From: Candidatus Eremiobacteria bacterium
GTDB taxonomy: Bacteria; Vulcanimicrobiota; Vulcanimicrobiia; Vulcanimicrobiales; Vulcanimicrobiaceae
Assembly (NCBI GenBank): GCA_963737065.1
Contig: CAVTRC010000001.1
Coordinates: 192,001-256,000 of the forward strand
Length of the DNA stretch: 64,000 bases
Direction: 5' to 3'
Shown here: positions 16,479 through 42,434 of the stretch, in pieces
Layout: each line of letters starts with the position of its first letter
Numbering within the stretch: position 1 is the stretch's first letter
The notes under the pieces: model-generated
What the model was told of the DNA's origin: nothing
Seen by the model: the letters and a program-made list of their open reading frames with translations, nothing else
Databases searched by the model: none
Program-made: the position numbers and the translations under genes

Positions 16479-16506
16479 TTAAGGACGTGACCTCAACGAC
16501 CGAAGA
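16479..16506 (+). promoter_or_regulatory. sigma28-type promoter of the rfbB operon (probably leaderless)
   Basis: TTAA-N16-ACCGAAGA, 8 nt before the ATG, no SD. Confidence 0.62.
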
Positions 16507-16514
16507 CCTGTACG

Positions 16515-17519
16515 ATGCGCTGGCTAGTTACGGGCGGACTCGGCTTCATCGGGTCCAACTTCATTCGATTGGCCCTTCGCGAGCGTCCGGGCCTCGAGGT
16601 GATCAACCTCGACGCGGTGACGTATGCGGGGAATCCCGCAAATCTGCGCGACGTGGAGTTCGATCCACGCTACCGTTTCGTTCGCGGCGATATTTGCGAT
16701 CCGGCCGCAATCCAGTCGGCAATCGGAACCGGAGTGGACGCAATCGTAAACTTCGCGGCGGAGACCCACGTGGATCGATCGATTCTCGAGCCCGAAGCGT
16801 TCCTCCGCACCGATATTCTTGGCACGCACATGCTGCTCGAAGCGGTGCGTGAACGATCGATCCCACGCTACCTTCAGGTATCGACGGACGAAGTGTACGG
16901 CGATGTCACGGAGGGGAGTTCGGTCGAAACCGATGCGTTACGCCCGCGCAGTCCGTACTCAGCTAGTAAGGCCGGCGGCGACCTGCAAGTGCTCGCTTAC
17001 TGGGCGACATACAGAACGCCCGTTCTAGTCACGCGCGGCAGCAACACGTACGGACCGTATCAATATCCCGAGAAGCTGATCCCGCTCTTCGTGAGCAACT
17101 TGCTCGACGATCGGCCCGTCCCGCTCTATGGCGACGGAATGCAAATACGGGATTGGCTGCACGTGGAAGATCACGCGCGCGGGATTCTGCACGTGCTCGA
17201 GAACGGGGCGGCCGGGAACGCATACAACATTGGCGGCGGCAATCCGCGTACGAATGTTGAGATTACGGAGCTGCTCGTACGCGAATGCGGACGCCGGATG
17301 GAAACACATGTGCGGCATGTCACCGATCGGCCGGGCCACGATCGGCGCTATGCGATCGACACGTCGAAAGTGCGTGCGCTCGGTTGGATGCCTCGCGTGG
17401 CCTTCGACGAGGGTCTTGTTCGCACGATTGCTTGGTACCGCGAGAACGAAGACTGGTGGCGTCCCCTCAAGTCGGGCGAGTTCGTCGATTATTACAAACG
17501 ACAGTACGCCCACCGATAA
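16515..17519 (+). CDS. rfbB: dTDP-glucose 4,6-dehydratase
   Basis: GGLGFIGS, AAETHVDRS, STDEVYG, YSASK, RPGHDRRYAID. Confidence 0.97.
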   Translation: MRWLVTGGLGFIGSNFIRLALRERPGLEVINLDAVTYAGNPANLRDVEFDPRYRFVRGDICDPAAIQSAIGTGVDAIVNFAAETHVDRSILEPEAFLRTDILGTHMLLEAVRERSIPRYLQVSTDEVYGDVTEGSSVETDALRPRSPYSASKAGGDLQVLAYWATYRTPVLVTRGSNTYGPYQYPEKLIPLFVSNLLDDRPVPLYGDGMQIRDWLHVEDHARGILHVLENGAAGNAYNIGGGNPRTNVEITELLVRECGRRMETHVRHVTDRPGHDRRYAIDTSKVRALGWMPRVAFDEGLVRTIAWYRENEDWWRPLKSGEFVDYYKRQYAHR

Positions 17520-17530
17520 CTGAAGAGACT

Positions 17531-18280
17531 ATGAAAGGCGTCATTCTCGCCGGCGGCCTCGGTTCGCGCCTCCGCCCGCTCACGAAGGTGACCAATAAGC
17601 ACCTCTTACCGATCTACGACAAGCCGATGATCTACTACCCGATCGAAACGCTTGTACGCGCGGGCATCAAAGACATCATGATCGTTACCGGCGGTAATTC
17701 CGCGGGCGATTTTCTGCGTCTTCTGGGAAATGGCAAAGAGTTCGGTCTCAAAGACATCTACTACACGTATCAAGAAGGTGAAGGCGGCATCGCGGACGCC
17801 TTGAAGCTGTGCGAACATTTCGCTGAAGGACAACGTATCGCCGTTATTCTCGGCGATAATATCATCCAAGACGACATCGCGCCGTTCGTTCGAAAGTTCC
17901 AGGACCAGGACTCCGGCGCGCGCATTCTTCTCAAAGAGGTCGACGATCCCGAGCGCTTTGGCTGCCCGCAGCTCGATGGCGATCGAATCGTTCGAATCGA
18001 GGAAAAACCGGTTACGCCCAAGAGCCGCTACGCCGTAACGGGCATCTACATGTACGACCGGCGCGTATTCGACTTTTGTAAGCGCTTGCGGCCGTCCGCA
18101 CGCGGTGAACTCGAGATCACCGACGTCAACAACGCATACATCAGAGAAGGCGATCTTTTCTACGACGTGCTCGATGGCTGGTGGACTGACGCCGGTCAAT
18201 TTGAATCGCTGTATCGAGCAGCAGAACTCGTAGCAAAAGAGCGCCAAAGGCCGACACTCGTTGCAGCCTCTTCCCGATGA
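17531..18280 (+). CDS. rfbA: Glucose-1-phosphate thymidylyltransferase (short RmlA/SpsI type)
   Basis: GVILAGGLGSRL, KHLLPIYDKPMI, RGELEITD. Confidence 0.92.
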   Translation: MKGVILAGGLGSRLRPLTKVTNKHLLPIYDKPMIYYPIETLVRAGIKDIMIVTGGNSAGDFLRLLGNGKEFGLKDIYYTYQEGEGGIADALKLCEHFAEGQRIAVILGDNIIQDDIAPFVRKFQDQDSGARILLKEVDDPERFGCPQLDGDRIVRIEEKPVTPKSRYAVTGIYMYDRRVFDFCKRLRPSARGELEITDVNNAYIREGDLFYDVLDGWWTDAGQFESLYRAAELVAKERQRPTLVAASSR

Positions 18281-19400
18281 ACCGGCGGAGCAGCCGCTCT
18301 ATGTAACGCAGCCGTATCTGCCGCCCATACGCGAGTTTCTGCCGTACGTCGAACGCATCTGGGAATCGAAGTGGCTCACGAACGGCGGCCCGTTTCATGC
18401 GGAACTCGAAGCCCGCCTCTGCGAGCACCTCGACGTCGAGCACCTCTCGCTTTTTTCAAACGGTACGATCGCGCTGATCACGGCTCTTCAGGCGCTGCGC
18501 GTGACGGGCGAGGTCATTACGACGCCGTACAGCTTCGTCGCGACGACGCACGCGCTGCATTGGAACGCGATCACGCCGGTCTTTGTCGACATCGACAGCC
18601 GCACGTTGAATCTCGATCCGCTGAAGGTCGAGGCGGCAATTACGCCGCGCACGACCGCCATTATGCCCGTTCACGTGTACGGCGTTCCGTGCGACGTCGG
18701 CGCGCTCGAAACGATGGCGAACCGATACGGCCTTCGCGTGATCTACGACGCGGCTCATGCATTCGGCGTGCGCGCGTCGTCGCGCTCCATCGCTTCCGCG
18801 GGCGATCTTTCGGTCCTCAGCTTCCATGCGACGAAAGCATTCAACACGTTCGAAGGGGGTGCGATCGTCTGCAAAGATCGAGCGATGAAACAACGGATCG
18901 ATCTGCTGAAGAACTTTGGGTTCGAGGATGAAACGACGGTCGTCGCGCCGGGCATCAATGGAAAAATGAACGAGCTGCAAGCCGCGTTTGGGCTCGTTCA
19001 TCTGCGACATATGGGCGAAATCCTCGCGAAGCGCCGTGCCGTCTACGACCGCTATGCCGACGCGCTCGAGCGCGTTCCGGGAATCCGGTTCGGCGTCGCA
19101 CTCCCGGACGCGACTGACTGGAACTACTCGTATTGCCCGATCTTCGTTGAGCACAACTTTGCGATGAGCCGCGATGGCCTTTACGAACGTTTGAAGACGC
19201 GCGGCATCCACAGCCGGCGCTATTTCTATCCGCTCATCAGCCAATTTCCGCCCTATCGCGCGCTCGCGTCCGCGACGGCCGCGAACTTGCCCGTCGCGAC
19301 GCGAATTGCTCGGCAAGTTCTTTGTCTGCCGATCTTTCCCGACCTCGACGAGCGGCGCCAGAACGACGTCATTTCGGTCATCGTGGAAGCATCGCGATGA
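18261..19400 (+). CDS. DegT/DnrJ PLP aminotransferase, VioA-like (dTDP-4-amino-4,6-dideoxyglucose)
   Basis: WLTNGGP, NGTIAL, YDAAHAFG, SFHATKAFNTFEGG, GINGKMNE, RRYFYP. Confidence 0.88.
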   Translation: MQPLPDEPAEQPLYVTQPYLPPIREFLPYVERIWESKWLTNGGPFHAELEARLCEHLDVEHLSLFSNGTIALITALQALRVTGEVITTPYSFVATTHALHWNAITPVFVDIDSRTLNLDPLKVEAAITPRTTAIMPVHVYGVPCDVGALETMANRYGLRVIYDAAHAFGVRASSRSIASAGDLSVLSFHATKAFNTFEGGAIVCKDRAMKQRIDLLKNFGFEDETTVVAPGINGKMNELQAAFGLVHLRHMGEILAKRRAVYDRYADALERVPGIRFGVALPDATDWNYSYCPIFVEHNFAMSRDGLYERLKTRGIHSRRYFYPLISQFPPYRALASATAANLPVATRIARQVLCLPIFPDLDERRQNDVISVIVEASR

Positions 19401-20686
19401 ACGTTCTCGTTGTTCCGTCCGGCACCGAAATCGGTCTTGACATTTTTGATGCGCTCGTGCGCCGGCGTGATATCGCGCTCTTCGGAGCGGAATCGACGGA
19501 TAACAGCCATGCGCAGTTCGTGTATCGGTCGAATCATCGCGTCGCACACTTTGATGCTCCATCGTTTGTTTCGGACGTGAACGCTCTCGTCCAAGCGTAC
19601 GCGATCGATTACATCTTCCCGGCTCACGACGACGTACAGCTCGCGCTGATGGCCGCGCAATCAGCGATCCCCTGCGATATCCTCTCTTCGCCCTTGTCCA
19701 CGGTCAGCATCACACGATTCAAATCAGCAACATACGAGGCCCTCGAAGGCCGCGTGCCCGTTCCGCGAAGATACATGCCGGATGAGATTCCCGAGCGGTT
19801 TCCGGTGTTCATAAAGCCGGATCGCGGACAAGGCTCCCAAGGCGTGCTCCTGTGCCACAACGAGGCGGAACGGCGACGCGCGGCGTCGTCGATGCACGGC
19901 ACCGTCGTGTGCGAGTATCTGCCGGGGCGCGAGGTCACCGTCGACTGTTTCTCCGACCGAGAGCATGGGTTGTTGTACGCCGCCCCTCGCGAGCGCGTTC
20001 GCGTTCGCGCCGGCATCTCGGTGCGTTCGCAGGGGGTCGAGGTTATGCGCGCGCGAGAGTATGCCGAATCGATCGCGCGGCGTTTCCAATTTTATGGCGC
20101 GTGGTTCTTTCAGCTCAAGGAACGCGCCGCGGACGATTGGGTGCTGCTCGAAGTGGGCGCACGCATTCCGGGCGGCGCGACATTGGCGCGCGTGAATGGC
20201 GTCAACCTTCCCTTAATGACGATCTTCGAGCATCGGCGGCTGCCCGTCGATGTTTCGCCCACGGCTCACGCGACCGTAATGGATCGCTCGTTCGTGTCTC
20301 GCTTCCACCTCGATCTGGACTTTGACGATCTATTCGTGGATTTCGACGACACTCTGTGCATCCGAGGGGTGCCGAATTTTCAATTGATCGCCTTGCTTTT
20401 CGCGGCGAAACATTACGGGAAGCGCATCGTCCTGCTCTCGCGCAATGCGGGCGACGCCGTTCAATGGTTGCACGAACGGCATTTGATCGAGCTCTTCGAC
20501 GACCTTGTATTCATCGATCGCAGCGCCGTGAAAGCCGAGTACGTGAGGCGCGGCGGTCTGCTGATCGACGACAGTTTTGCCGACAGGCAGGCGTGCATCG
20601 ACGCCGGTATCCCGTGCTTCGATACGGACGCCGTACCCGCGGTACTCGAACATCTAGAAAGGAGCATGCATGTTTACGCCCGATAA
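19397..20686 (+). CDS. ATP-grasp protein fused to a C-terminal HAD-like domain
   Basis: FIKPDRGQGSQG, EYLPGREVTVDC, FFQLK, LLEVGAR, then DFDDTL ... IDDSFADR. Confidence 0.8.
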   Translation: MNVLVVPSGTEIGLDIFDALVRRRDIALFGAESTDNSHAQFVYRSNHRVAHFDAPSFVSDVNALVQAYAIDYIFPAHDDVQLALMAAQSAIPCDILSSPLSTVSITRFKSATYEALEGRVPVPRRYMPDEIPERFPVFIKPDRGQGSQGVLLCHNEAERRRAASSMHGTVVCEYLPGREVTVDCFSDREHGLLYAAPRERVRVRAGISVRSQGVEVMRAREYAESIARRFQFYGAWFFQLKERAADDWVLLEVGARIPGGATLARVNGVNLPLMTIFEHRRLPVDVSPTAHATVMDRSFVSRFHLDLDFDDLFVDFDDTLCIRGVPNFQLIALLFAAKHYGKRIVLLSRNAGDAVQWLHERHLIELFDDLVFIDRSAVKAEYVRRGGLLIDDSFADRQACIDAGIPCFDTDAVPAVLEHLERSMHVYAR

Positions 20687-21401
20687 ACTTGACTCGCTCG
20701 TCGAAACGTATGCGATCGATACGGTTTCCGAGCAATACAAACGCCTCGAGTTCATCGATAAGCTGACGGATCATGTCGCAGTCGCGGACGCCGGCGTCAT
20801 AGAACTCGGATCGGCGTCGGGGCGGCTTACACGGTTGCTCGCGCAACAATGCCGCCATGTAACGGCGGTTGATGGTTCGGCACGCTTCATTGCAATCGCT
20901 CGGGAACACGTCGCGCCGTTCGAGGTCGACTTCGTTCACTCGATGTTCGAGACGTTTGCGCCGGGGTCTCCGTGCGATCTCGTCGTGATGCATCATATCC
21001 TCGAACACGTCGACGATCCCATAACGCTCATGACACACGTGAAAGGGTTCATGAAGCGGGGTGGGCACCTTGCGCTAACCGTGCCGAACGCAAGGGCGCT
21101 CTCGCGTCAGCTGGCGGTCGAGATGGGATTGCTCGAATCGGTCTACGCGCTCACGGAAAACGACTACCATCATGGCCACCAGCGCGTGTACGACTGGGAT
21201 GCACTGCGTCATGATGTGCGCGCGGCCGGATTCGAAATCGTTGGCGAACACGGTCTTGCCTTTAAGCTTTTCGCCGACTTCCAAAACGAGAAAATTGCCG
21301 AGGCGGGCATTATCGGCGACCGCCAATTCCGTGGCTTGTGGCCGATCGGCGATCGCTACCGCGACGTCGCGGGCGCGATCATGATCGTGGCGCGCCGCTA
21401 G
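20670..21401 (+). CDS. Class I SAM-dependent methyltransferase
   Basis: VIELGSASG, HILEHVDDP, GGHLALTVPN. Confidence 0.88.
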   Translation: MFTPDKLDSLVETYAIDTVSEQYKRLEFIDKLTDHVAVADAGVIELGSASGRLTRLLAQQCRHVTAVDGSARFIAIAREHVAPFEVDFVHSMFETFAPGSPCDLVVMHHILEHVDDPITLMTHVKGFMKRGGHLALTVPNARALSRQLAVEMGLLESVYALTENDYHHGHQRVYDWDALRHDVRAAGFEIVGEHGLAFKLFADFQNEKIAEAGIIGDRQFRGLWPIGDRYRDVAGAIMIVARR

Positions 21402-22318
21402 ACCGCCACGGCGGGTCGTGCAAGTGACGCGACACGCGCGCGCAGGATCTCGTTTGCCCCGCCCAAATCTTTGCGCGTGTAGAAGGCGTGAAACGCTTCT
21501 TCGCTGCCCCACGTAACGGGACGGGGACCGAGAACCTCTTCGTTGAGGTAGTGAAGTACGCGGACATCTGCCAAATCGATGAGAAATTTGCGCTCGGCCC
21601 AGTCGAGGTTCGGAAAGTTGAACCTCGGTTCGAGCGCGAGGTGCGGCAATCCGACCTTGTAGATAGCGAGCGTAAGCGCAAATTGCGCCCGGTAAGCTGC
21701 GTAAACCGCTGCGCGTTCGAAGACGAGATCGAGACAACGCTCGTATTCCGGCCCAAAATCCTTCATCGCCGGCCCCGGCACGAACACCGCACCGAAGTTG
21801 TAGTAGATCGGAGCGAAGCGGTTCACTTCTTCGTTGTACATCGTGCCCCAGCCCAGGTGCTGAAAGCGGTCTACCGGGAGCCGGTATCCTACCGACGCAA
21901 AAACTTGCTCCCATGACAAACCGCTTCCGCGAAAAGGCGGAACGTGCGCCATAACCCCCGCAGCAACCGGCTGGGCGAGGAGGCTGACGATGATATCATC
22001 GAGCGGCCGGATCAGAACGGTGTCGGCGTCGAGGAAGAGCACCAGATCAGCGTCCGTATCCATTCTGATACGATCCGGTGCAAAGTACGACATTCGGCGG
22101 AATTTTTCGCGGTCGATGAACCGCCATTCAATGTTTGCTTCTCGAGCCCACGCGTACCGCGCCGGCACATCGAACGGATCGCAATCTTCCCCGATAAATA
22201 CGATGAACTGCGCGGTCGCCGTAATGCCGCCGCATGCAAGAAACGACCGCCAGACGTATTCGACCTGACGAAAAAATGCGGGCGTCGGGCTGATGTGGAT
22301 GCGTACTTCAACGTTCAT
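21398..22318 (-). CDS. GT-A fold glycosyltransferase (GT8-like)
   Basis: LFLDADT (DxD), YNFGAVF, VLHY. Confidence 0.7.
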   Translation of the reverse strand: MNVEVRIHISPTPAFFRQVEYVWRSFLACGGITATAQFIVFIGEDCDPFDVPARYAWAREANIEWRFIDREKFRRMSYFAPDRIRMDTDADLVLFLDADTVLIRPLDDIIVSLLAQPVAAGVMAHVPPFRGSGLSWEQVFASVGYRLPVDRFQHLGWGTMYNEEVNRFAPIYYNFGAVFVPGPAMKDFGPEYERCLDLVFERAAVYAAYRAQFALTLAIYKVGLPHLALEPRFNFPNLDWAERKFLIDLADVRVLHYLNEEVLGPRPVTWGSEEAFHAFYTRKDLGGANEILRARVASLARPAVAV

Positions 22319-23256
22319 TGGCGCGCCTCTTCAGCCACGCGATATGCGGCCCGTACCCGTTGCATTTCGACCTGCGCGTTCGCGACCACTCGATCGAGCT
22401 CGGTTTTGAACTCCGCCCGCGCACCCGCCAACATCACTTGCGCGAAACCGCGCGAAATATTGAGCACTTCCGTTAGGCCGATCAGCTGGTGAAGGTCGCG
22501 CGAGAGCAGCGCCGAGTACATCGGCGCGGTGAACGGAAGCCGAAACCCTGCGTTCGAGCCAGCGTGATGCGCAAGGCGCGAATCGATCACGCTGCTCGTT
22601 AGCGACGCGAGTTGTTCACGCGTTCCCGTCCATGGCAAGTGCAAACGGTCGACCAAATATGCGGCTTGATCGACCGGTGTCTCCATCCAGTAACGGTAGT
22701 CCACGATCGCGTGAACGTTGCCCTTCAGCCGGGAGATGGCGTCGGCATTGTGCTCGAGCCACATTACCTCCGAATGCATCGGATCGATGCCGTCACGCGC
22801 CTCCAGCGACTTCGCAACGTCGTTCGGGTTGCGCGTGACCAGAACGAAATGCGCGTCGAATCCCCGTTGCTCGATGATGTCGAGCCACACCGGTAACAAT
22901 CGTGCTGTTCGCGGATCCTTAAATCCCCACAAACCGCCGTAACGATCCAGCTCTCGTACCGCAATGCCGGCGAGCTCTTCGCGAAATTGCTCGATTTGCG
23001 GCACGTGCCACCAATCTTTGGGGAACGGCACGATCATCGAGCTCGTCTTCCACTCCATTCCCATCGTGGCCAAAATCGCGTCGTGAAGACGAGAAATCTC
23101 TTTGGATTCGAAATAGCCCTTGGCGTTGTGAGCGGTGGGGGGCATCAAGTCGTCACTGAGCGGAACGCCGAGTGCATTGAGCAGATTCGTCGTTACCGAC
23201 GTACCCGAACGATGCATTCCGAGAACGACGATGAGGCGCGGGCGGCTGGCGGTCAC
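22315..23256 (-). CDS. Sulfotransferase family protein
   Basis: 5'-PSB-like loop VLGMHRSGTS, KDPR, 3'-PB-like RNPNDVAKSL. GTG start at 23256 is inferred. Confidence 0.82.
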   Translation of the reverse strand: MTASRPRLIVVLGMHRSGTSVTTNLLNALGVPLSDDLMPPTAHNAKGYFESKEISRLHDAILATMGMEWKTSSMIVPFPKDWWHVPQIEQFREELAGIAVRELDRYGGLWGFKDPRTARLLPVWLDIIEQRGFDAHFVLVTRNPNDVAKSLEARDGIDPMHSEVMWLEHNADAISRLKGNVHAIVDYRYWMETPVDQAAYLVDRLHLPWTGTREQLASLTSSVIDSRLAHHAGSNAGFRLPFTAPMYSALLSRDLHQLIGLTEVLNISRGFAQVMLAGARAEFKTELDRVVANAQVEMQRVRAAYRVAEEARQ

Positions 23257-23288
23257 AGAGGATGTATCGGCTTCGCGGAGGACGGGCG

Positions 23289-25944: not shown

Positions 25945-25972
25945 TTAATGAATCGGCACTGCGGTCCGATAG
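25945..25972 (+). promoter_or_regulatory. sigma28-type promoter of the sulfotransferase-like operon
   Basis: TTAA-N16-TCCGATAG, 7 nt before GTG 25980. Confidence 0.68.
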
Positions 25973-25977
25973 CTTAG
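25950..25977 (-). promoter_or_regulatory. sigma28-type promoter of cysD-cysNC
   Basis: CTAA-N16-GCCGATTC (or TAAG-N15), 10 nt before ATG 25939. Confidence 0.65.
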
Positions 25978-25979
25978 AA

Positions 25980-31888: not shown

Positions 31889-31894
31889 GAGACG

Positions 31895-34308: not shown

Positions 34309-34336
34309 AAATCGGCGCCAAGCGCACTTCGGTTTA
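34309..34336 (-). promoter_or_regulatory. sigma28 promoter of flaG-fliD-fliS
   Basis: TAAA-N16-GCCGATTT. Confidence 0.85.
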
Positions 34337-36277
34337 GGCGACCGGAACGGCAGCGGCGTGCCCGTACGCGGTGACGGCGGCGACGAGTGCAGGCCAAGCT
34401 GACGTTGCTGCCGCCTCGCGGAAAGCGGCAACGTCGACGGTGCGTTCCCATGCCGCCCGGAATCCGGCTTCGATCGAAGATACGTCCATCGGGTCGACGG
34501 ATGTCACGAGTTCCGGCCATACGGCCGATGCGTATCCCGGCTTCGGCGCGACGGCGGCCGCGCCGTAACCCATGCCACGCGCGAGACGCGAGAGGCCGCG
34601 AGCCGCCGCACCGACATCGGCAACGACCCGCGCGCGCGCGTAGATACCTTCGATCTCCGGCGCGTGGAGGTCGCCATCGCGAACGAGGGTGACGGCCGGG
34701 CCGGCCGTTTCGGTGAGATAGCCGTAATACTCCACGTTTTGTACGGGCCCGAGAAGGACCAGCGGCAGACGCGTGCGATTGGCGGCGTGGATCGCGAAAT
34801 GCTGATTGCGCTCCGCATCGAGCGGTGCATGAATCAGGATGTACGGCTGCGTACCGACGATGGAACCAATGCGCGAGGACGGCGTAACACAATCGACCGG
34901 AACGCCGGCCGGAATGACGCTTCCGCGGTATCCGAAGCGCTCGCGCAAGAAGTCCGCCTCAGCATCGCAACTGACGAGCGCCGCGGCGGCGCGTTTCATG
35001 AGCACGCCGGAAGCCTCGTCGTAAAGCGAGCCGCTCGCAAGTCCGCCGATTCGACGGCGCGCGAAGGCCCAGTGGTACTCGTCGATCACCGGCGCATCCA
35101 CGGAGCCGCGCGCGATCGACATGCTTCCGTCGCCCGCTAAAATCGTTTCGCCGAACCGGTCGTCCGCATATGGAGTGACGACGACCGGGACGTGTGCGGA
35201 CTCTGCGTCGCGGAGTAATTCGACGAGCGTCGTCCCATGGCGTAAGCCGAACACATGAATCAGGTCGGTGCGACTGATCTCGACGTCGCGCGCGGTGCAG
35301 AGGGCGGCGTCAAAACCTTCGTTGCGTAGTTGTCCGGCGAGCGCGCGGGCCTCGTCGAGATCGGCGTCAGGAAACCGCAGCGCATCGTCACGAACGACGA
35401 GTCGTATGACACCCGAAGATCCGCCGACCGCTTTCGGCGCTTGGATCGACGACGCGACGACCGGAACGTCGTGCTCGGCAACGGCAAACGTGCCGATGAC
35501 CGGCGCATCTTCACAATCGAACGACACCGTAACGTGCATCGGAATCGGCTGCACGATCGAAATCTCGCGGTCATCGTTTCGCGGGCCGCCCTCATACGCG
35601 CTGAAGCGCGCCGCAACGGCATCTTCCCGCGGCCCGACATAACACTCGTATTCGCGCGAGCGGTTCAGCGGCGCCGTACTACGTATCGACGCAAACCACT
35701 GCGCGGAAAGCGGATCTTGTTCGATGCCGATCGATGCGGCCACGTTCGAAAGCGCGGCGGCCGTATTTCCCGCATTACGTCCCGCGACCGCGACGTCTCG
35801 CCCACGCGCGAATCGCTGCGCGTAGACGCCCGGCGCAACGCGTTGAAAAGCTTCGCGATATGGCGCTGCCCCATAAAACCCAGCCGATCGTGCCGCCTCG
35901 AAGCCCGCCCGCGCCTCGTCATGATAGAAACGAATCTGCTCGCTATTGAAGAACCGCGCCGTCGTCAAGCTGCGCAACCACGGTAAGATGCGTTCCTCCA
36001 CCTGCGAAATTTCAGCATCGTTCACAAACGAAAGCGAGCGCGGCCACGCAATCGCCGGCGCTTCGCGCGTCACGAGCATCAGTCCGTTGACGCGTACGAG
36101 CGGAACGAACAACCATTCGCCGGCGCGATGAAACACGAGATCGGCGAACGCCTCCAACCGGGCGGACAGCGTCGGCTCGATCCGCGCGACGGCAACGTAT
36201 TCCGCACGTAGAAGATCATCGGCGCGTGCCCGGTCGAGCGACGGCCAAAGCGCGGAGTGGAAATCATGCACGTTCAT
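34334..36277 (-). CDS. Divergent GT-B (GT4-like) protein with degenerate methyltransferase-like N-terminal region
   Basis: DLIHVFG, PVVVTP, PLVLLGP, VDPMDVSSI. ATG 36277 overlaps the upstream stop. Confidence 0.65.
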   Translation of the reverse strand: MNVHDFHSALWPSLDRARADDLLRAEYVAVARIEPTLSARLEAFADLVFHRAGEWLFVPLVRVNGLMLVTREAPAIAWPRSLSFVNDAEISQVEERILPWLRSLTTARFFNSEQIRFYHDEARAGFEAARSAGFYGAAPYREAFQRVAPGVYAQRFARGRDVAVAGRNAGNTAAALSNVAASIGIEQDPLSAQWFASIRSTAPLNRSREYECYVGPREDAVAARFSAYEGGPRNDDREISIVQPIPMHVTVSFDCEDAPVIGTFAVAEHDVPVVASSIQAPKAVGGSSGVIRLVVRDDALRFPDADLDEARALAGQLRNEGFDAALCTARDVEISRTDLIHVFGLRHGTTLVELLRDAESAHVPVVVTPYADDRFGETILAGDGSMSIARGSVDAPVIDEYHWAFARRRIGGLASGSLYDEASGVLMKRAAAALVSCDAEADFLRERFGYRGSVIPAGVPVDCVTPSSRIGSIVGTQPYILIHAPLDAERNQHFAIHAANRTRLPLVLLGPVQNVEYYGYLTETAGPAVTLVRDGDLHAPEIEGIYARARVVADVGAAARGLSRLARGMGYGAAAVAPKPGYASAVWPELVTSVDPMDVSSIEAGFRAAWERTVDVAAFREAAATSAWPALVAAVTAYGHAAAVPVA

Positions 36278-37578
36278 GGCACCGCGACGCTTTCGAGCAG
36301 CCGGCGCAGCGCGCTCGGACTGCGATCTTTGATCCGATCCGTATCGATCGATACGCGCGCTTCGATGCTTGCGCGCCATGCGGCAAGGTCTTCTTCATCG
36401 CTGATCGCAATATCGGGGCTGCGTTCGGCCGGGACGTTGAGCTTCTCGAGGAGACGCACCAACCGGTGCGCGATCGTTGCAGCACTCGGCTCACCGCGCG
36501 AACCGATCATCAGTGTGACCGGCGATTGTACGTCGAACGCCTGAACGTAACGCCGAACGAACTCGGCGGCCCGCGTCCAGGTTCGCTCGTCTTCTATGGC
36601 GGCGACGAAGACGCATTCGTTGTCCGGCCGAGTGATGGCCGCATCTCCGGAATCCGCCCGAGGCGCCGGGAGCGCTGCATAGTGAACGGTTCGGTCGAAG
36701 CCGCGCACGATGCTTCGCCGTGGATCGTATCCTTCGGTAGGAAGCTCCGCCGATGGATAGCCCCATTTTTCGGCAAACTTTATCCAGTTCGATCGCATGG
36801 TCGCGCCGTAGTCGACGTTGTTCGCAATGAAGGACTGGCTGCCGAAGTGATGGATGAAACTGTCATCGCAGACGTAAATGTGATAGCCCGCCGCGCGCAC
36901 GCGCATCGAAAAGTCGTCGTCCTCGAAGTTTCCGACGGCAAAGCGTTCGTCGAAGCCGCCGACCTGCTCGATGACCCGGCGGTCGATGCACAGACAAAAG
37001 CCGATTGCACGATCGGTAAGGAAACCGCGCTTTTCGAATCGCCGGCGACGCCGCGCGGCGTAGACGTGCATCTCGGCGATCGTTTCGTATTGCGCGTCGA
37101 TCACTTGTTGATCGCCGACGATCTTGTTGCTGCGAGGCGCCGTGACGCCCACGCCGGGGACTCGCGCGAACGGATCCAAGAGCGCGTCGAGCCATCCCTC
37201 GGTGACGATGACGTCATTGTTGAGGACGACGATGTACTCGCCCGACGCGGCGGCGATGCCATCGTTGTTCCCGCCGCCGAAACCGCGATTGCGATCGTTG
37301 TAAACGACGCGAACGTGCGGATCGTCGATCCCGCGCAACATTTCGAGGGTTTCCGGGTTCGAGCCGTTGTCGACGACGATCACTTCATACGGTTCGCTCG
37401 TGTATGCCGCAATCGATTCCAGCGCGGTTTTCGTGTACTGCGGCGCGTTCCAGCTCAGCGTAACGATGGAAACGAGCGCGACGCTGACGCCGGGGCGCGG
37501 CGAGATACGGTTCCATTGCAACGGGATCGGTATCGGCCAAACTCTCGAGCGAACGTCCATGTTTCGACTCGAAAGCAA
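36274..37578 (-). CDS. GT2 glycosyltransferase, C-terminal part of an apparently frameshifted gene
   Basis: VSIVTLSWN, VVDNGS, LNND, GFDERF..GNFEDDDF. No credible start before the domain. Confidence 0.8.
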   Translation of the reverse strand: MLSSRNMDVRSRVWPIPIPLQWNRISPRPGVSVALVSIVTLSWNAPQYTKTALESIAAYTSEPYEVIVVDNGSNPETLEMLRGIDDPHVRVVYNDRNRGFGGGNNDGIAAASGEYIVVLNNDVIVTEGWLDALLDPFARVPGVGVTAPRSNKIVGDQQVIDAQYETIAEMHVYAARRRRRFEKRGFLTDRAIGFCLCIDRRVIEQVGGFDERFAVGNFEDDDFSMRVRAAGYHIYVCDDSFIHHFGSQSFIANNVDYGATMRSNWIKFAEKWGYPSAELPTEGYDPRRSIVRGFDRTVHYAALPAPRADSGDAAITRPDNECVFVAAIEDERTWTRAAEFVRRYVQAFDVQSPVTLMIGSRGEPSAATIAHRLVRLLEKLNVPAERSPDIAISDEEDLAAWRASIEARVSIDTDRIKDRSPSALRRLLESVAVP

Positions 37579-38896
37579 GGTCGCACGCTACGTCTCCTAC
37601 GTTTGCAATACGTTCACCCGCACCTCGGGTAGCATAGCCCATCGGCAAGAGGCGCAGCAGTAAGTCGGCGATCGAACCGTCCATCGTATCCGACGCGTTC
37701 AGTTGCATATCGGCGGGAATCACGTGGAGCGCGAGGATCGTGCAACGCCCGTCGGCGGCAAGCGTTCCGACGTTCTCGCCAAGCGGCAATTGCGGCGAGT
37801 ACGTTGCGGCCGCCGCGGTCTGGCCCGAGACGACCTGCCGATAGAGTTCCTCCAACCAATGCGGCTCGAGTTCGGTATCGCCGCGGACGAACGCCACATG
37901 ACGCACCCCGCGCACGCGCATCGCTTCGCGTGCGCGTTCGAGCGCGTCATCGTCGAACGCCCACACGATCTCACCCACCGGCATTGCGGTGTCGCGGATT
38001 CGCGATGCAAAACCGTCGCGGCCCGCATTCGGCTCGACCGTGTGCACGACGACCGTTACGGGTTGAATTTGAAGGACAAGCGGACTTTTGAGCGTTCGAA
38101 GCGTCTGGTACGGATGGCGCAGCAGGCCTCGCTCGATGAGCTTCGCGACGCCGTCATACACGAATTGTCTGCCCCAACGGCGATGCAACAACTCGGTGTT
38201 CCACGCGACCTTCCGGAAGCGTTGCAGTCCCGATTGCGACTCGAAATGATAGAGCACCGCGTCGCCGGCATAGATCACGCGCAGTCCTTTGCGGCGCACC
38301 TTCAGGCAATAGTCGACATCTTCGTAGCCGTTCCAGTACGCCTCTTCGAGACCGCCGAGCTCTTCATACAACGCGCGCGGCGTCAAGAGACACGCACCCG
38401 TCACCATGTGCAGGTCTTGCACGCGCACCGCGTCGGGATCATCGAATCGAACGAGATAGTTGTGGTGATACGGCATGCCGTCCGGCAAGCCGAACGTGTT
38501 ACCACCTACGACGACCCCGCCATGCTGAACCGTTTTGTCGGGATAGAGAAGCCGCGCGCCGACGATTCCGACGTTGTCTTCGCGCGCATGGTGCAGCATC
38601 GTCCGAAGCCACCCGTCCCAGGGCTCCGTGTCGTTGTTGAGCAGCACGAGAAACTCGCCGCGCGCAACACGTGCGGCTTGATTGTTCGCGCCCGCGAAGC
38701 CGAGATTCGTTTCGTTCCGGATCACTCGAATCGACGGGAACTCTGCGAGAACAGCCGCGGTGTGATCCGTGGAGGCATTGTCGACCACGATCACTTCGCC
38801 GATGCCGGCGCCGGCCGTCGTGCGCGGAATCGCGTCCAGGCAACGCTTCGTCAGATCGGCCTTGTTAAAGACGGGGATAATGATCGAATAATCCAT
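37385..38896 (-). CDS. GT2 glycosyltransferase, N-terminal part of an apparently frameshifted gene
   Basis: SIIIPVFN, VVDNAS, LLNND, VTGACL, EDVDYC. Overlaps the next ORF by 194 nt out of frame. Confidence 0.85.
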   Translation of the reverse strand: MDYSIIIPVFNKADLTKRCLDAIPRTTAGAGIGEVIVVDNASTDHTAAVLAEFPSIRVIRNETNLGFAGANNQAARVARGEFLVLLNNDTEPWDGWLRTMLHHAREDNVGIVGARLLYPDKTVQHGGVVVGGNTFGLPDGMPYHHNYLVRFDDPDAVRVQDLHMVTGACLLTPRALYEELGGLEEAYWNGYEDVDYCLKVRRKGLRVIYAGDAVLYHFESQSGLQRFRKVAWNTELLHRRWGRQFVYDGVAKLIERGLLRHPYQTLRTLKSPLVLQIQPVTVVVHTVEPNAGRDGFASRIRDTAMPVGEIVWAFDDDALERAREAMRVRGVRHVAFVRGDTELEPHWLEELYRQVVSGQTAAAATYSPQLPLGENVGTLAADGRCTILALHVIPADMQLNASDTMDGSIADLLLRLLPMGYATRGAGERIANVGDVACDLAFESKHGRSLESLADTDPVAMEPYLAAPRRQRRARFHRYAELERAAVHENRAGIDCGIHERTV

Positions 38897-38901
38897 CGAC
38901 C

Positions 38902-40968
38902 CTAGCGCCCGATTGCGTTTTCGGCTACGCGTGCCGCTTCTTCAAACCGTCCCTGACGAAGAAAGAACGCCGCGAGTTCGACCGCGCCGCGTGCCCCATC
39001 CGTTTGGGCAATCGAGGCGAGCGCGTCTTCAGCCCGCACGAGGTCGTTGCGTGCTTCAGCAATCGAGGACTTCAAGCGCAATGCGCCGGTGTGCGCGGGC
39101 GCAACCGCAAGGATCTTCTCGACTGCGCCGAGCGCTTCGTCATCGCGATCGAGCGAATGTAAAATGGTCGCGCGCAGAAACATCCCGTCGACGTGCAACG
39201 CCGGCGTGTCCATCGTGATCGCGTCGAGGTGCTCGAACGCAGTTTGAGTGCGGTGAAGCGATGCCGCGGCCGCTGCCGCGTTGAAATGGAGATACGCGTT
39301 GCGCGGCTCGAGCGCTAAGCCCGCTTCGGCTAATCCGAGACTTGCTTCATGATCGCCTTCCCCGCTGCAGCGGTAGGAGCGGCGAACGTAATCGGCGGCG
39401 CGGCGCGGCTCAACTGCTTTCTCGCGCGCGAGCATCCGCTGCAGTGCTTCGTCGTTGCCACCCTCGCGGTACTCCGCTTCCAGCCAATTCAAAATCTCGG
39501 CGGACCCGGGCGCGCGATCCGCTGCCGCTTCTAGGTATCGCAACGCTTCCGGTTTGCCCTTGATGCTCGCGGCGAGCTGCGCGCCTGCGAGAAGCAACTG
39601 CCCAGCGACGTCGTCGCTGAGCGACGGATGACACGCGTCGATGATTGCGATCGCCGCTTCGCCGTCTTTGCGTCGCAAGAGGTAGTTCACGTAGTCGATC
39701 GTCCCGTAATCGTCGCCGAACTCTTCGTACACGTGCCGGAAAAGCGCTCCGGCTTCCGTAAACTGTCCGAGCCGTTCGAGCGCGCGCGCGAGGTTCAACA
39801 TGAGCGGCTGTACCTTCGGCGCGTTGGCGAGGCCTTTACGGAACCACTCGACCGCCGCCGCATCGTCGCCTTGAATTACATAGCTTGAACCGATCTCCGA
39901 ATGCGCCTTCCAAATGGAGACCTGATCGTCGACGACGAACTGCTGATGCACGAATGCGCCGTCAGCGATCGCCTCGAGAAACGCCTCACGTGCTTGCTCG
40001 TAGCGCTGTTGCGCGACGAGCGCTTTGCCCAGTTGAAAGTGCGCGTTCGCGTAGCGGGGAGAGAAGCGCAGCGCGCCGAACGCGATCTCTTCACCCTTCT
40101 TCGGGTCGCCCAGCTTGTCGCAGTACGTCTCCGCCAGGATCGAATATCCGTTTGCAATGAACCCACGCGTTTCATCGCCGTTGAGCGCACGCATATGCTC
40201 GAGCGCGTCACGCGCCGCTTCGAAATCCTTCATCATGAACGCGGTGGTCCCGAGATTGAACCAGACGAAGGGATCGCTCGGATCTTTTTTCGCCGCCGCT
40301 TGAACGATTTCGAAATTTCGTTTTGCCTTGTCGCGCTGCTTGACGACCTCTGTTAAGTATCCATGGTGAATGACGGCGACGGGCGCGTTTACCGCGTTCA
40401 GTCCGCTGGCGCTTTCGTCAAGCGTGACGAACTCGTGAATCAAGCCGCGAAACCGGATACGTTCGTTATTCGGAAAAATGCGCACCAGCGCGTGCGACAT
40501 CTCACCGGTACCGCGGTAGTCGTCGGAGCGGTTGTAACACCGAATCCATACCCCGGTCGTGTGCGCGGGGACGTTTTTCAACGTTTCGAGCACGGGAATC
40601 GACTCCGGCTTGAGTTCTTCGTCGGCATCGAGCATCAAGATCCAGCGACGCGATGCCATTGAGATCGCCTCGTTGCGCGCCCATGCGAAATCGCTGCGCC
40701 ATTGGCGATGCTCGACGCGCGCACCAAACCCATGTGCGATCGCGACGGTGCGATCCGAGGATCCCGTATCGACGATGCAAATCTCATCGGCGACGTTTCC
40801 GACGCTGCGCAAACATTGTTCCAGGAAACGCTCTTCGTTCTTGACGATCATGCATAACGTCAAGCCCGCCGGCTTCTGGACGAATCCCGCGGGCGGTTGC
40901 GGAAGACCGTAGGAAAGAGCTTGTTGCGGCGCGGGCGCCGCGCGCCGCGAGGTCACCCGGATAGGCAT
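38902..40968 (-). CDS. GT2 plus TPR glycosyltransferase (flagellin glycosyltransferase-like)
   Basis: CMIVKNEE, VDTGSSD, DFAWARN, LDADE, IHE, HHGY, then TPR repeats. Directly downstream of fliC. Confidence 0.9.
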   Translation of the reverse strand: MPIRVTSRRAAPAPQQALSYGLPQPPAGFVQKPAGLTLCMIVKNEERFLEQCLRSVGNVADEICIVDTGSSDRTVAIAHGFGARVEHRQWRSDFAWARNEAISMASRRWILMLDADEELKPESIPVLETLKNVPAHTTGVWIRCYNRSDDYRGTGEMSHALVRIFPNNERIRFRGLIHEFVTLDESASGLNAVNAPVAVIHHGYLTEVVKQRDKAKRNFEIVQAAAKKDPSDPFVWFNLGTTAFMMKDFEAARDALEHMRALNGDETRGFIANGYSILAETYCDKLGDPKKGEEIAFGALRFSPRYANAHFQLGKALVAQQRYEQAREAFLEAIADGAFVHQQFVVDDQVSIWKAHSEIGSSYVIQGDDAAAVEWFRKGLANAPKVQPLMLNLARALERLGQFTEAGALFRHVYEEFGDDYGTIDYVNYLLRRKDGEAAIAIIDACHPSLSDDVAGQLLLAGAQLAASIKGKPEALRYLEAAADRAPGSAEILNWLEAEYREGGNDEALQRMLAREKAVEPRRAADYVRRSYRCSGEGDHEASLGLAEAGLALEPRNAYLHFNAAAAAASLHRTQTAFEHLDAITMDTPALHVDGMFLRATILHSLDRDDEALGAVEKILAVAPAHTGALRLKSSIAEARNDLVRAEDALASIAQTDGARGAVELAAFFLRQGRFEEAARVAENAIGR

Positions 40969-40994: not shown

Positions 40995-41028
40995 AAAAAA
41001 GAAGAGAGCCCGCCGGAGCGGGCTCTCT
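40995..41028 (-). terminator. Rho-independent terminator after flagellin
   Basis: 11-bp stem (41003-41013 with 41018-41028), 4-nt loop, then TCTTTTTT on the minus strand. Confidence 0.9.
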
Positions 41029-41057: not shown

Positions 41058-42329
41058 TTAACGGAAGAGTCCCAGAACCGTTTGCGCGTTCGAGTTCGAC
41101 TGCGCCAAGACCGACGTGCCGACTTGCACGAGGATCTGCAGCTTCGTGAACTCGGTCGTCGCTGCGCCGACGTTGAGGTCGCGGATGGACGATTCCGACG
41201 CCTGCAGGTTCACCGCTGCGACGTTGTCGTTGCTCGCATCTTCGTTGAGGCGAACGATGACCGCGCCGAGTTGCGCCTGCTGATTGAGGATCGTCTGGAG
41301 CGCGTTGTCGATCTGACCGATCGCGTCTTCCGCACCGAGCGACGGAGCGTTCGCGGCGGAGAGCGCCAGGTTGATGTTCGAGATGCGCAGCGTTTGCGTG
41401 CTCGTCGCCTGGATACCGATCTGGATGACGTCGCCTTCATCAGCCGCCGATTGGAAGCTCAGCGCCGGGTTGTTCGGGTTCGTCAGAGCAGCCACGTTCT
41501 GGCTGATCTTGATGTACGACGTCGTGCCGACATCCGCGGTCGTGAACGTACCGAGGCGAACGCTGACGTTGTCGAACGCCGCCGCAGCGCCTTTGGCACC
41601 GTAAAGGCTCGAGGACACGCAGACCTTACCGGTCGCACTGTCGACGAACGTTTCTTGCACGGCGATCGACACGCCGGTGTTGATCACCTGAAGCTCGATC
41701 GTACCGTCGGTCGTACCGGTGCCGCCGAAGCCCGCCGTACCGCCGGTGGTCGTCTGGAACTTCGCGTTCGCGGCAGAAACCGATGCCGCGAGGAAGCCGT
41801 AGTTGATGCCTTGGCTCGTCGCGATATTACCGTTCGTCGAGAGCGCCGTGTTCGCCGTGATGTGCAGGTTCGCTTGTTGACGCGCCTGGAAGCCGGCGTG
41901 GCTGCCGTCGAGGAGTGCTTGACCGTTGAAGTTCGTGTTCTGCGAAATCCGGTTGACTTCGAGCAGAAGCTGCGAAACTTCAACCTGCAGGTTCTGACGA
42001 TCGCTGTTCGAGTTGATGTCCGACGCCGCTTCGACCGCGAGATTGCGGATCCGTTGCAGAATGTCGGTCGTCGTTTGCAGCGCGCCCGACGCGACTTGCG
42101 CCGCGTTGTTGGCGTTCTGCACGTTTTGAACGGCTTGGTTGTAGCCGTCCACCTGCGTTTGCAGATTCGTCGCGATTGCGAGGCCCGACGGATCATCCGA
42201 CGCATTGTTGATGCGCAGACCCGACGAGAGCTGCGTGACGATATTCTTGAGCGCGTTTTGATTGTTGTTCAGGTTGAGCTGAACGTTGTTCGCCAACAGA
42301 TTATTGGCAATGCTGAGTCCTTGACTCAT
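41058..42329 (-). CDS. fliC: Flagellin
   Basis: LSSGLRINNASDDPSG, ILQRIRNLA, TNFNG, SESSIRD, VLAQSN...VLGLFR. Confidence 0.97.
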   Translation of the reverse strand: MSQGLSIANNLLANNVQLNLNNNQNALKNIVTQLSSGLRINNASDDPSGLAIATNLQTQVDGYNQAVQNVQNANNAAQVASGALQTTTDILQRIRNLAVEAASDINSNSDRQNLQVEVSQLLLEVNRISQNTNFNGQALLDGSHAGFQARQQANLHITANTALSTNGNIATSQGINYGFLAASVSAANAKFQTTTGGTAGFGGTGTTDGTIELQVINTGVSIAVQETFVDSATGKVCVSSSLYGAKGAAAAFDNVSVRLGTFTTADVGTTSYIKISQNVAALTNPNNPALSFQSAADEGDVIQIGIQATSTQTLRISNINLALSAANAPSLGAEDAIGQIDNALQTILNQQAQLGAVIVRLNEDASNDNVAAVNLQASESSIRDLNVGAATTEFTKLQILVQVGTSVLAQSNSNAQTVLGLFR

Positions 42330-42332
42330 TTT

Positions 42333-42400
42333 TCCTCCATGAACGCGCGGTGCGCGTGTTGTTACAAGACTAGTCTGAAGGGGAACGTCCTGTCCCCTCC
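42333..42400 (-). promoter_or_regulatory. Putative CsrA binding sites in the flagellin leader
   Basis: Hairpin with AGGAC loop (42377-42400) and ATGGAGGA overlapping the SD. Confidence 0.65.
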
Positions 42401-42406
42401 GTTGGA

Positions 42407-42434
42407 ATATCGGAGCCGCGATTTACCGACTTTA
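42407..42434 (-). promoter_or_regulatory. sigma28 promoter of fliC
   Basis: TAAA-N16-TCCGATAT. Confidence 0.9.

Follow-up and report, generated by a model that had tools for sequence, protein, structure and literature searches.

Among the modifications known on flagellin glycans are acyl, methyl, phosphate, and sulfonate groups. For example, the type B flagellin of Clostridioides difficile carries a sulfonated peptidylamido-glycan, for which no cysDNC genes or sulfotransferase are known. Flagellin glycosyltransferases that bear tetratricopeptide repeats (TPR) include GmaR of Listeria and enzymes of the FlmG type, and the latter bind flagellin through the repeats. The sulfolipids of Mycobacterium tuberculosis and the NodPQ/NodH system of rhizobia depend on CysDNC, an Fe-S reductase of adenosine 5'-phosphosulfate (APS), and separate sulfotransferases. 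The FlmG class of flagellin glycosyltransferases has been described (bioRxiv 10.1101/2022.03.25.485807), and in Pseudomonas syringae the genes vioA, vioB, vioT, vioR, and vioM, together with fgt1 and fgt2, are described as a flagellin glycosylation island with a viosamine-type sugar (PMC3927599). In the archaeon Halobacterium salinarum, sulfotransferases are described for the sulfated N-glycans of the archaellins and the S-layer (PMC11980604), and haloarchaeal filaments are reported to bundle when their glycans are lost (PMC11239922). In this study, a stretch of 64,000 nucleotides (nt; hereafter the window) from a soil bacterium of the Candidatus Eremiobacteria (assembly GCA_963737065.1) was analyzed, in which sugar-nucleotide, glycosyltransferase, sulfate-activation, and sulfotransferase genes are found among flagellar genes. 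The region is very probably a flagellin glycosylation island, and the whole picture, in which this island has a built-in sulfation module, is a reading that could equally well hold or fail.

The genome (G000; 3.08 Mb, 60.5% GC, completeness 95.33%) consists of two contigs, C1 and C2, and the window corresponds to C1:192001-256000. Among the homologs of its proteins, the few with names belonged to metagenome-assembled genomes of Candidatus Eremiobacteraeota, Baltobacteraceae, and Aquilonibacter, which makes membership in this phylum most likely. Open reading frames (ORFs) were scored against Pfam and NCBIfam profiles, with bits read against the curated cut-offs. From rpsB to fliC, four blocks of alternating orientation were observed. 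The first (forward) is composed of rmlB, rmlA, a DegT/DesI-like aminotransferase, an ATP-grasp ligase, and a methyltransferase; the second (reverse) of unk306, the sulfotransferase gene ST_A, cysNC, and cysD; the third (forward) of ST_B, a PHP phosphatase, an AAA_22 ATPase, and unk491; and the fourth (reverse) of unk219, unk132, fliS, fliD, flaG, unk681, the glycosyltransferase genes GT2a, GT2b, and GT2-TPR, and fliC, beyond which are csrA, fliW, flgL, flgK, and rod and ring genes. Glycosyltransferase and sugar-nucleotide genes are thereby embedded between the flagellin gene and flaG/fliD/fliS, as in a glycosylation island. The ORF, Pfam, and NCBIfam checks recovered every gene that an earlier note on this DNA, made from the letters alone, had listed. 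Of its "about five" glycosyltransferase genes, three were confirmed as GT2 (PF00535), while the rest amounted to two leads, unk681 (GT4) and unk306 (weak GT8). GT2-TPR (38902-40968) includes TPR repeats, and its best NCBIfam match was the SunS peptide S-glycosyltransferase (85 bits, under the cut-off). The rmlB gene was the sole close copy in the genome, and rmlA/rmlB were the sole dTDP-glucose route found genome-wide. No flippase, polymerase, polyprenyl-phosphate priming transferase, or Wzx/Wzy/ABC exporter family was matched among the island ORFs in Pfam or NCBIfam, and the lack of a match to lipid-linked machinery fits cytoplasmic protein glycosylation.

The two sulfotransferase-like genes claimed in the earlier note proved real, ST_A through a PF13469 match at the cut-off and ST_B through its predicted fold. 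ST_A has the loop GMHRSGTS, and its GTG-ACN start was conserved in G001 and G005, two genomes of the same genus. ST_B had no match in Pfam or NCBIfam, a profile search against PDB sequences gave only noise (E = 0.077), and hhalign against ST_A and the third sulfotransferase TPR-ST (see below) aligned the P-loop alone, with a probability of <1%. ST_B is a sulfotransferase by predicted fold only: for its AlphaFold2 model, built from 27 homologs, all 50 structural entries among the matches listed were sulfotransferases. The best structures were 3rnl, a bacterial sulfotransferase whose substrate is unnamed, the NDST1 sulfotransferase domain (1nst), and the heparan sulfate 3-OSTs (Z 14.8-13.5, root-mean-square deviation 3.5-4.0 Å, 221-238 residues; 3.7 Å over 221-235 residues for 3rnl and 1nst), while the cytosolic sulfotransferases (SULTs) and the tyrosylprotein sulfotransferases (TPSTs) reached a Z of only ~10. 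Among sulfotransferases, the modeled ST_B is most like the glycan sulfotransferases, with 3rnl. The ST_B family, for which 41 relatives were found (the few named ones from Eremiobacterota), has the loop HIGTHKT(G/A)TT, in which H9, G11, T12, H13, K14, and T15 are nearly invariant, as well as the invariant residues R119 and S127. The loop and R119/S127 fit what we take to be the binding motifs for 3'-phosphoadenosine 5'-phosphosulfate (PAPS), a 5'-phosphosulfate loop of the K-x-G-T-T type and a 3'-phosphate motif R-x7-S. In the same-genus genome G005 (L093, ~13180-13280), ST_B is gone, but a few codons from its start persist beside cysD together with the promoter region that the two genes share, which looks like a recent deletion.

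The PHP gene was likewise present as claimed, as a member of the wider PHP family only. The protein failed the curated cut-off for 3',5'-bisphosphate nucleotidases, and its nearest models were NF041577 (3',5'-nucleoside bisphosphate phosphatase; 133 against a cut-off of 400) and RNase RNM (131 against 375). It is the second PHP paralog of the genome, with a higher-scoring one at C1:2486047, and its gene context suggests a role in the removal of adenosine 3',5'-bisphosphate (pAp).

A genome-wide search with the PF13469 and PF00685 profiles, with ST_B recognized by fold, found three sulfotransferase-like genes, each located either within the flagellar island or next to a flagellin gene. Genome searches with PF03567 and PF09037 gave no match, but neither did the controls, so that this blank carries little weight. 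A weak third PF13469 match at C1:2252164 (17.9 bits) showed no family on rescan and was dropped. The third gene, TPR-ST (C2:427410-429023, reverse strand), encodes 537 amino acids (aa) with TPR and Sulfotransfer_3 domains (PF13469, 149.8 bits). A gap of 131 nt separates it from a second flagellin gene, fliC2 (C2:429155-430537, forward strand; 83% identity with FliC1), which is oriented divergently, and the same divergent pair occurs in the genome G004. Upstream of a third, divergent flagellin gene (C1:2320952-2322244, 34% identity with FliC1), no sigma28-like site is present, and its counterparts in relatives have a -35 variant of the GCAAA type.

The architecture of TPR-ST, with TPR families joined to PF13469, and its divergence from fliC2 across a shared promoter region would suit a direct sulfation of flagellin, in which sulfate is placed on Tyr, Ser, or Thr rather than on a glycan while the TPR domain of TPR-ST holds the flagellin. 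Such a route is improbable, given that the TPR-ST family is very large and had no flagellin nearby at any of 78 loci, that an ortholog was found in just one of the five same-genus genomes searched, and that ST_B is closest to glycan sulfotransferases.

Sigma28-type promoters were identified with a two-block position weight matrix (PWM), which was trained on flagellin upstream regions of other genomes in the family, G000 excluded. The exact TAAA...CCGA[TA] pair was present in 19 of the 38 training regions, and after four rounds sites came from 26 of the 38, with the consensus C-TAAAGT-N11/12-(G/T)CCGATA(T/A/C). The scan of G000 (6,156,242 positions) gave 32 sites with a score of at least 16, 87 of at least 14, 272 of at least 12, 839 of at least 10, and 2294 of at least 8. 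The looser pattern TAAA-N17-CCGAT had 11 exact, 445 one-mismatch, and 6209 two-mismatch sites genome-wide. The five motif strings quoted in the earlier note all occur in the sequence exactly as given, but the sigma28 co-regulation proposed from them was borne out unevenly: the fliC and flaG sites were strong, those of cysD and ST_B were modest (9.2 and 7.8), and that of rmlB (3.4) is at chance level. The strongest sites among the sulfation genes were instead two that the note had not listed, upstream of ST_A (15.2) and TPR-ST (11.9, rank 288). A TAAA-N15/16-GCCGATAA-like pair of blocks was found for fliC1, flaG, ST_A, fliC2 (PWM 13.0, rank 154), and TPR-ST.

The best score upstream of each of 2770 crude gene calls was used as a background for these sites. 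Scores at least as high were found upstream of eight genes for ST_A, 25 for TPR-ST, 97 for cysD, 179 for ST_B, and 992 for rmlB. Combined over the four sulfation units, the Fisher p was 5.5e-5 and resampling of 200,000 random four-gene sets gave 2.5e-5, values that are optimistic because two of the four units (cysD and ST_B) had been picked by the reader of the sequence after the motif was seen, while ST_A and TPR-ST were found independently. The power of the PWM is real but limited, as the 17 top-scoring crude genes scanned included fliF, a fliK-like gene, and motA, and the others were unrelated or unknown. A gene for FliA itself was identified at C2:167140-167808 (TIGR02479, 251.4 bits against a cut-off of 189.6), with cheB and a fliK-like gene as neighbors. 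Sulfation and the filament are connected by a link of the sigma28 type, and ST_A is, judging from its promoter sequence, very probably driven by sigma28.

As an argument, the conservation of these promoters is stronger than their scores. The ST_A promoter was found in all five lineages with an intact ST_A, namely G000 (15.2), G001 (17.8), G005 (13.1), G015 (17.0), and L206/L207 (14.6), where G001, G003, G005, and G006 belong to the same genus as G000, G015 and G017 represent two other genera, and L-numbers denote contigs or loci of relatives or metagenomes (L206 and L207 are near-identical metagenome contigs and count as one lineage). These sites differ in their spacers and flanks, and the GTG start is located exactly 7 nt downstream in four of the five lineages. 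In G015, ST_A forms a separate unit that is divergent from the AAA_22 gene. For fliC and flaG, both blocks were kept in G003 and G001 while the spacers diverged. The elements between cysD and ST_B, where the two strings are interleaved in a divergent region of 41 nt, recurred in G003, G005, and, with an altered spacer, G001, but not in G006, G015, or G017. Two conserved blocks with a diverged spacer at orthologous positions were thereby observed for fliC, flaG, and ST_A, and for cysD/ST_B only in these three genomes. The TPR-ST gene of G004 retained GCCGATAA, 8 nt, and ATG, with no -35 element. The rmlB gene had CCGA(A/T)NA 8 nt before ATG in G000, G003, G006, and G001, with a poor -35.

The order of the island was also conserved, in five same-genus genomes and in two other genera, three genera of an Eremiobacterota family in all: an arrangement of flgK...fliC-glycosyltransferases-flaG-fliD-fliS...AAA_22...cysD-cysNC...rmlA/rmlB-rpsB was observed in G000, G001, G003, G005, G006, G015, and G017. 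The sugar genes between the conserved blocks vary among genomes, and in G006 and G015 cysD-cysNC is located between rmlA and rmlB. In G001, the rmlB match (L033:5438-6440) is split into two parts that overlap, pointing to a frameshift or a misassembly, and an insert of ~2.4 kb separates rpsB from rmlB.

At several sites, the start codon comes 7-10 nt after the -10 element and no Shine-Dalgarno sequence is present, and this uniform layout suggests leaderless late-flagellar mRNAs. The predicted sites would be used by sigma28, and the sulfotransferase genes would be transcribed without leaders. A general leaderless sigma28 class was considered and rejected, as two-mismatch sites showed no peak at 7-10 nt genome-wide. 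At a PWM score of at least 7.5, only a small bump was observed at 10 nt (14 against ~5), and CCGA[AT]NA located 8 nt before a start codon occurred 11 times against ~5 genome-wide, about twofold over background, which is insufficient support for rmlB. The leaderless layout of the sulfotransferase genes, here with (G/A)CCGATAA 7 nt before ATG, was also observed for two genes that encode secreted proteins (C1:318316 and C1:1316228), one of them a solute-binding protein (PF00497) whose -35 element is a perfect CTAAAG.

From the gene identities, the synteny, the promoter motifs and their conservation, and the predicted fold of ST_B, all of which were established directly, the following pathway is proposed. 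Family assignments suggest that RmlA, RmlB, and the DegT aminotransferase would produce a dTDP-4-amino-4,6-dideoxyhexose, which the ATP-grasp ligase and the methyltransferase may decorate by acylation and methylation. The soluble GT2-TPR, GT2b, GT2a, and the GT4-like unk681 would assemble the glycan on cytoplasmic flagellin prior to export, and the analogy with TPR-bearing flagellin glycosyltransferases makes GT2-TPR the candidate for binding flagellin. CysD/CysN would form APS and the fused CysC domain PAPS, and the cytoplasmic ST_A and ST_B would sulfate the glycan or its nucleotide-sugar precursor. TPR-ST, beside fliC2, may sulfate the glycan too, or flagellin itself, and the PHP phosphatase would clear the inhibitory by-product pAp. 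Given the resemblance of the modeled ST_B to heparan N-sulfotransferase and the prediction of a free 4-amino sugar, an N-sulfation (sulfamate) of this sugar is also possible. Late-flagellar sigma28 (FliA) promoters would switch on ST_A and TPR-ST together with flagellin, and perhaps cysD and ST_B likewise. Flagellin or its glycan is somewhat favored as the sulfation target. The complete proposal, that the filament is sulfated on the flagellin glycan, and perhaps on the protein, with PAPS from the island by sulfotransferases that are leaderless sigma28 late flagellar genes, is put forward tentatively.

Several observations weigh against this reading, in the supply of sulfate, in the promoters, and in the distribution of the enzymes. 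The earlier note took the PAPS to be destined for sulfation rather than assimilation because no cysH or cysI is present in the window. No cysH, sir, cysK, or sulfate transporter gene was indeed found in the window, a lack of linkage that leaves a role in assimilation possible, yet a cysH-sir pair is located at C1:1.930 Mb, 1.7 Mb away from the island. The island cysD is the only one in the genome, cysNC is the only strong APS kinase match, and no Sat-type or other ATP sulfurylase was found genome-wide (at the completeness of 95.33%). As the sole sulfate-activating system found, cysD/cysNC must also serve assimilation if the cell reduces sulfate, and probably also supplies APS to CysH-Sir; it cannot be dedicated to flagella, and the earlier claim was too strong. 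What stands of it is that PAPS is plausible as a sulfation branch. CysH has C120C121-X81-C203xxC206 and C229 in a C-terminal ECGLH, the motif of APS reductases. A CC-X~80-CXXC motif is described as separating bacterial APS reductases from PAPS reductases, and a Bacillus subtilis enzyme of the APS-reductase class is described as reducing PAPS too (PMC1175818). With the APS-reductase motif in CysH, the APS kinase domain is not obviously needed for assimilation; plausibly, APS would be directed to reduction, and the PAPS from the kinase domain to the sulfotransferases. In relatives, cysNC genes outside the flagellar island adjoin assimilation genes or unrelated genes. For example, G010 has sir-cysH-cysC-sat beside a sulfate ABC transporter, and in G036 a PALP-domain enzyme (cysK-like), cysNC, and a sulfate transporter are found together, while cysNC adjoins only a TauE-family permease in G030 and is located among unrelated genes in G008 and G019. 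A TauE/SafE-family permease gene was observed directly 3' of cysNC in G015, G017, and G004 and near cysNC in G030, and may encode the sulfate importer of a cysD-cysNC-tauE module; the G000 island has no such gene.

As for the promoters, the cysD, ST_B, and rmlB sites score low, and no sigma28-like site was found upstream of cysD in G006, G015, and G017 or for the glycosyltransferase operon downstream of fliC. Genome-wide, a PWM score of at least 7.5 combined with the leaderless geometry retrieved ~50 ORFs, near background, and PWM hits of at least 13 are mostly inside coding sequences and probably chance. The low scores (9.2, 7.8, and 3.4), the lack of a genome-wide excess of leaderless starts behind weak sites, the missing cysD motif in three relatives, and the assimilatory contexts of cysNC outside the island would suit an account with no flagellar sulfation program at all, in which cysD/cysNC is purely assimilatory, the cysD, ST_B, and rmlB strings are chance matches, and the sulfotransferase genes are passengers. 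There is little to recommend this account, since it leaves unexplained the strong conserved ST_A promoter, the TPR-ST site by fliC2, the island PHP paralog, and the linkage across three genera, and the combined four-unit p (~3e-5 to 5e-5, an optimistic figure) also stands against it.

The distribution of the enzymes beyond the clade is the third point. Among 61 related genomes, ST_B relatives were found in 10, flagellin in 26 (a tally that includes the unpublished G034), and APS kinase in 45 (including the unpublished G027 and G059), and nine of the ten ST_B genomes had flagellin. ST_B was present in G030, where no flagellin was found, and in G033 ST_B and cysD-cysNC are located away from flagellar genes. 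Flagellin was within 5 kb at none of the 78 distant TPR-ST loci, and flagellar genes were detected at two of 80 ST_A-related metagenome loci, the two closest relatives (one of 39 among loci of at least 8 kb), where detection was based on FliC1, FlgL, FliD, FliS, and FlaG queries. A flagellin linkage of the wider TPR-ST and ST_A families was thus rejected, and since these families are mostly non-flagellar, the flagellar link is a feature of this clade and not of the enzyme families.

These distributions bear on a further explanation, in which the sulfotransferases act on another glycoconjugate or small molecule (lipopolysaccharide, exopolysaccharide, an envelope glycan, or a lipid) and the flagellar link is positional only, the location reflecting the PAPS source and the sole rmlA/rmlB in a variable region between rpsB and the flagellar genes. 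The housekeeping-like cysD/cysNC, unique in the genome, the sole rmlA/rmlB, which other glycans would have to share, the ST_B homologs of G033 and G030, the mostly non-flagellar ST_A and TPR-ST families, and the varying content between the flagellar block and rpsB would all agree with it. It is nevertheless unlikely, although clearly the strongest of the alternatives, as the sigma28-type promoter of ST_A was kept in five of five lineages, the divergent TPR-ST/fliC2 pair was found in two genomes, all three sulfotransferases found are flagellum-linked, and no export or lipid-carrier genes were matched in the island.

Table 1. Features of the island and its surroundings. Positions are those of the window unless a contig is named.
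Feature	Position	Strand	Evidence and remarks
rpsB	15461-16474	-	ORF of 337 aa
rmlB string	16479-16506	+	TTAA-N16-ACCGAAGA, 8 nt, ATG; PWM 3.4, rank 18026; weak
rmlB, dTDP-glucose 4,6-dehydratase	16515-17519	+	TIGR01181, 439.7 bits (cut-off 365.1)
rmlA, glucose-1-phosphate thymidylyltransferase	17534-18280	+	TIGR01207, 250 bits (below cut-off); PF00483, 198 bits
DegT/DesI-like sugar 4-aminotransferase	18261-19400	+	PF01041, 337 bits; TIGR04427, 308 bits (below cut-off)
ATP-grasp ligase, candidate for amino-sugar N-acylation	19322-20686	+	PF15632, 60.9 bits; start uncertain
S-adenosylmethionine (SAM) methyltransferase	20670-21401	+	PF13489, 73.7 bits
unk306, possible GT-A enzyme	21398-22318	-	4-nt overlap with ST_A stop; weak GT8 lead at protein-atlas rank 17
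ST_A, sulfotransferase	22315-23256	-	PF13469, 27.1 bits (cut-off 27); 313 aa from conserved GTG
ST_A promoter	23264-23294	-	CTAAC-N16-GCCGATAC, 7 nt, GTG; PWM 15.2, rank 48; -35 overlaps cysNC stop codon
cysNC, ATP sulfurylase GTPase subunit fused to APS kinase	23289-25133	-	PF01583, 195 bits; PF00009, 117 bits
cysD, ATP sulfurylase small subunit	25130-25939	-	NF003587, 297 bits (cut-off 195)
cysD string	within 25945-25978	-	TAAG-N15-GCCGATTC, 10 nt, ATG; PWM 9.2, rank 1301
ST_B string	within 25945-25978	+	TTAA-N16-TCCGATAG, 7 nt, GTG; PWM 7.8, rank 2500
ST_B, sulfotransferase-fold protein (predicted)	25980-27020	+	AlphaFold2 pLDDT 92.1; structure matches
PHP-family phosphatase, candidate pAp phosphatase	26927-27841	+	true start probably near 27030
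AAA_22 ATPase and unk491 pair	27877-30299	+	PF13401, 80.6 bits
unk219, unk132, fliS, fliD	30365-33898	-	PF02561, PF07195, PF02465; synteny
flaG-like gene	33914-34273	-	named by position, no Pfam match; kept in relatives
flaG-fliD-fliS promoter	34309-34339	-	CTAAAC-N-GCCGATTT; PWM 15.7, rank 37
unk681, probable GT4-type glycosyltransferase with extra domain	34334-36379	-	protein atlas 0.95, 183 shared features with GT4 clusters
GT2a, GT2b, GT2-TPR	36274-40968	-	PF00535, 93.9, 102.1, and 81.6 bits; GT2a start uncertain
Intrinsic terminator 3' of fliC	41003-41028	-	11-bp stem, then T run; strong
fliC1, flagellin	41058-42329	-	PF00669, 122 bits; PF00700, 57 bits
fliC1 promoter	42407-42437	-	CTAAAGTC-N-TCCGATAT; PWM 26.0, rank 1; conserved in G003, G001
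csrA and fliW	42447-43315	-	TIGR00202, 90.5 bits; PF02623, 124.6 bits
TauE/SafE permease of relatives	L090:7898-8695, L092:9526-10278, L035:10931-11608, L201:12487-13482

Further features of the island were observed beside these main components (Table 1). In the rpsB ORF, the S2 domain begins only at residue 86, so that the real start is probably later and the intergenic region between rpsB and rmlB wider. CysNC scored 512 bits against NF004035, below the cut-off of 715. Five island ORFs, unk306, unk491, unk219, unk132, and the flaG-like gene, were counted as having no family match or lead (unk306 with its weak lead included). For unk306, no match was found in Pfam or by tblastn in the relatives examined, while unk491 (491 aa) had no significant family match in Pfam or NCBIfam, and unk681 likewise none in either. 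The top NCBIfam match of the AAA_22 ATPase was an XrtA/PEP-CTERM-associated ATPase (130 bits, under the cut-off). The AAA_22-unk491 pair adjoins fliS and two unknown genes in G001, G003, G005, G006, G015, G017, L206, and L207, and could be an unrecognized flagellar accessory pair.

In the fourth block, the GT2b and GT2a frames overlap by up to ~190 nt (37385-37578), while they are adjacent without overlap in relatives, and the GT2b of G000 has ~31 extra C-terminal residues. A sigma28-like site with a PWM score of 17.6 (TGGTAAAGTC...CACCGATAAGC; 33240-33269, reverse strand) is located ~630 nt inside fliD, and may be either an internal promoter that serves fliS and the genes beyond it or a match by chance. 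The 5' untranslated region (UTR) of fliC1 (42330-42406; cf. L039:10085-10155) is near-identical in three genomes and includes a GGA-rich hairpin just past the promoter, as does the UTR of fliC2. Together with csrA/fliW directly upstream, the hairpin fits a translation control by the FliW-CsrA-flagellin partner switch.

Full-text searches of a literature library found no report of PAPS-derived sulfate on a bacterial flagellum, and gave only the sulfated archaellins of archaea, the tyrosine sulfation by RaxST, and sulfotransferases of O-antigen regions. For example, one article (PMC3542563) mentions sulfotransferases in O-chain regions only and not in the flagellar island. Glycosylation islands, CysDNC, and sulfotransferases are each well known, but not in combination under flagellar promoters. 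If the proposed sulfation holds, it would be the first case of a bacterial flagellum sulfated from PAPS, and the sulfotransferases would join the FliA regulon as a new class of member. It would extend to bacteria a charged-filament chemistry that is so far known from haloarchaeal archaella, and would assign a function to the ST_B family, which matches no Pfam or NCBIfam model. For a phylum with a single cultured species, it would also provide a trait open to testing, and the suggested leaderless late-flagellar mRNAs are a separate testable point.

A comparison with the known systems revealed both shared and distinct features. As in M. tuberculosis and rhizobia, APS would be directed to reduction and the PAPS of a fused APS kinase to dedicated sulfotransferases; there, the sulfate is placed on lipids or Nod factors, and no flagellar link or sigma28 promoter is known. 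Like FlmG and GmaR, to which it is likened by architecture and not by sequence, GT2-TPR has a catalytic domain fused to TPR repeats and a gene that adjoins flagellin, although the domain order and glycosyltransferase family of FlmG differ, and TPR-ST would follow the same logic with a different catalytic domain. The type B flagellin of C. difficile resembles the proposed structure in combining a sulfur-oxyanion group with an amide-linked peptide-like moiety in the glycan, but its group is a sulfonate with a C-S bond and not a PAPS-derived sulfate ester.

The island is also like the vio island of P. syringae, to which it is likened by gene content, in that genes for a 4-amino-4,6-dideoxyhexose, for acylation and methylation, and for soluble glycosyltransferases are located by fliC/flaG/fliD/fliS, with no lipid-carrier machinery. 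It differs in the added cysD/cysNC, two sulfotransferases, and PHP phosphatase, in its ATP-grasp ligase as the acylating enzyme, and in a host phylum with one cultured species. With the archaella of haloarchaea it would share a motility filament bearing PAPS-type sulfated sugars, proposed here from genes alone, for which a charge-based role is plausible. While the haloarchaeal glycans are N-linked, made on a lipid carrier, and borne by an unrelated, archaeal filament, the system proposed here belongs to a bacterial flagellum, is probably cytoplasmic and O-linked, and would be under the control of sigma28.

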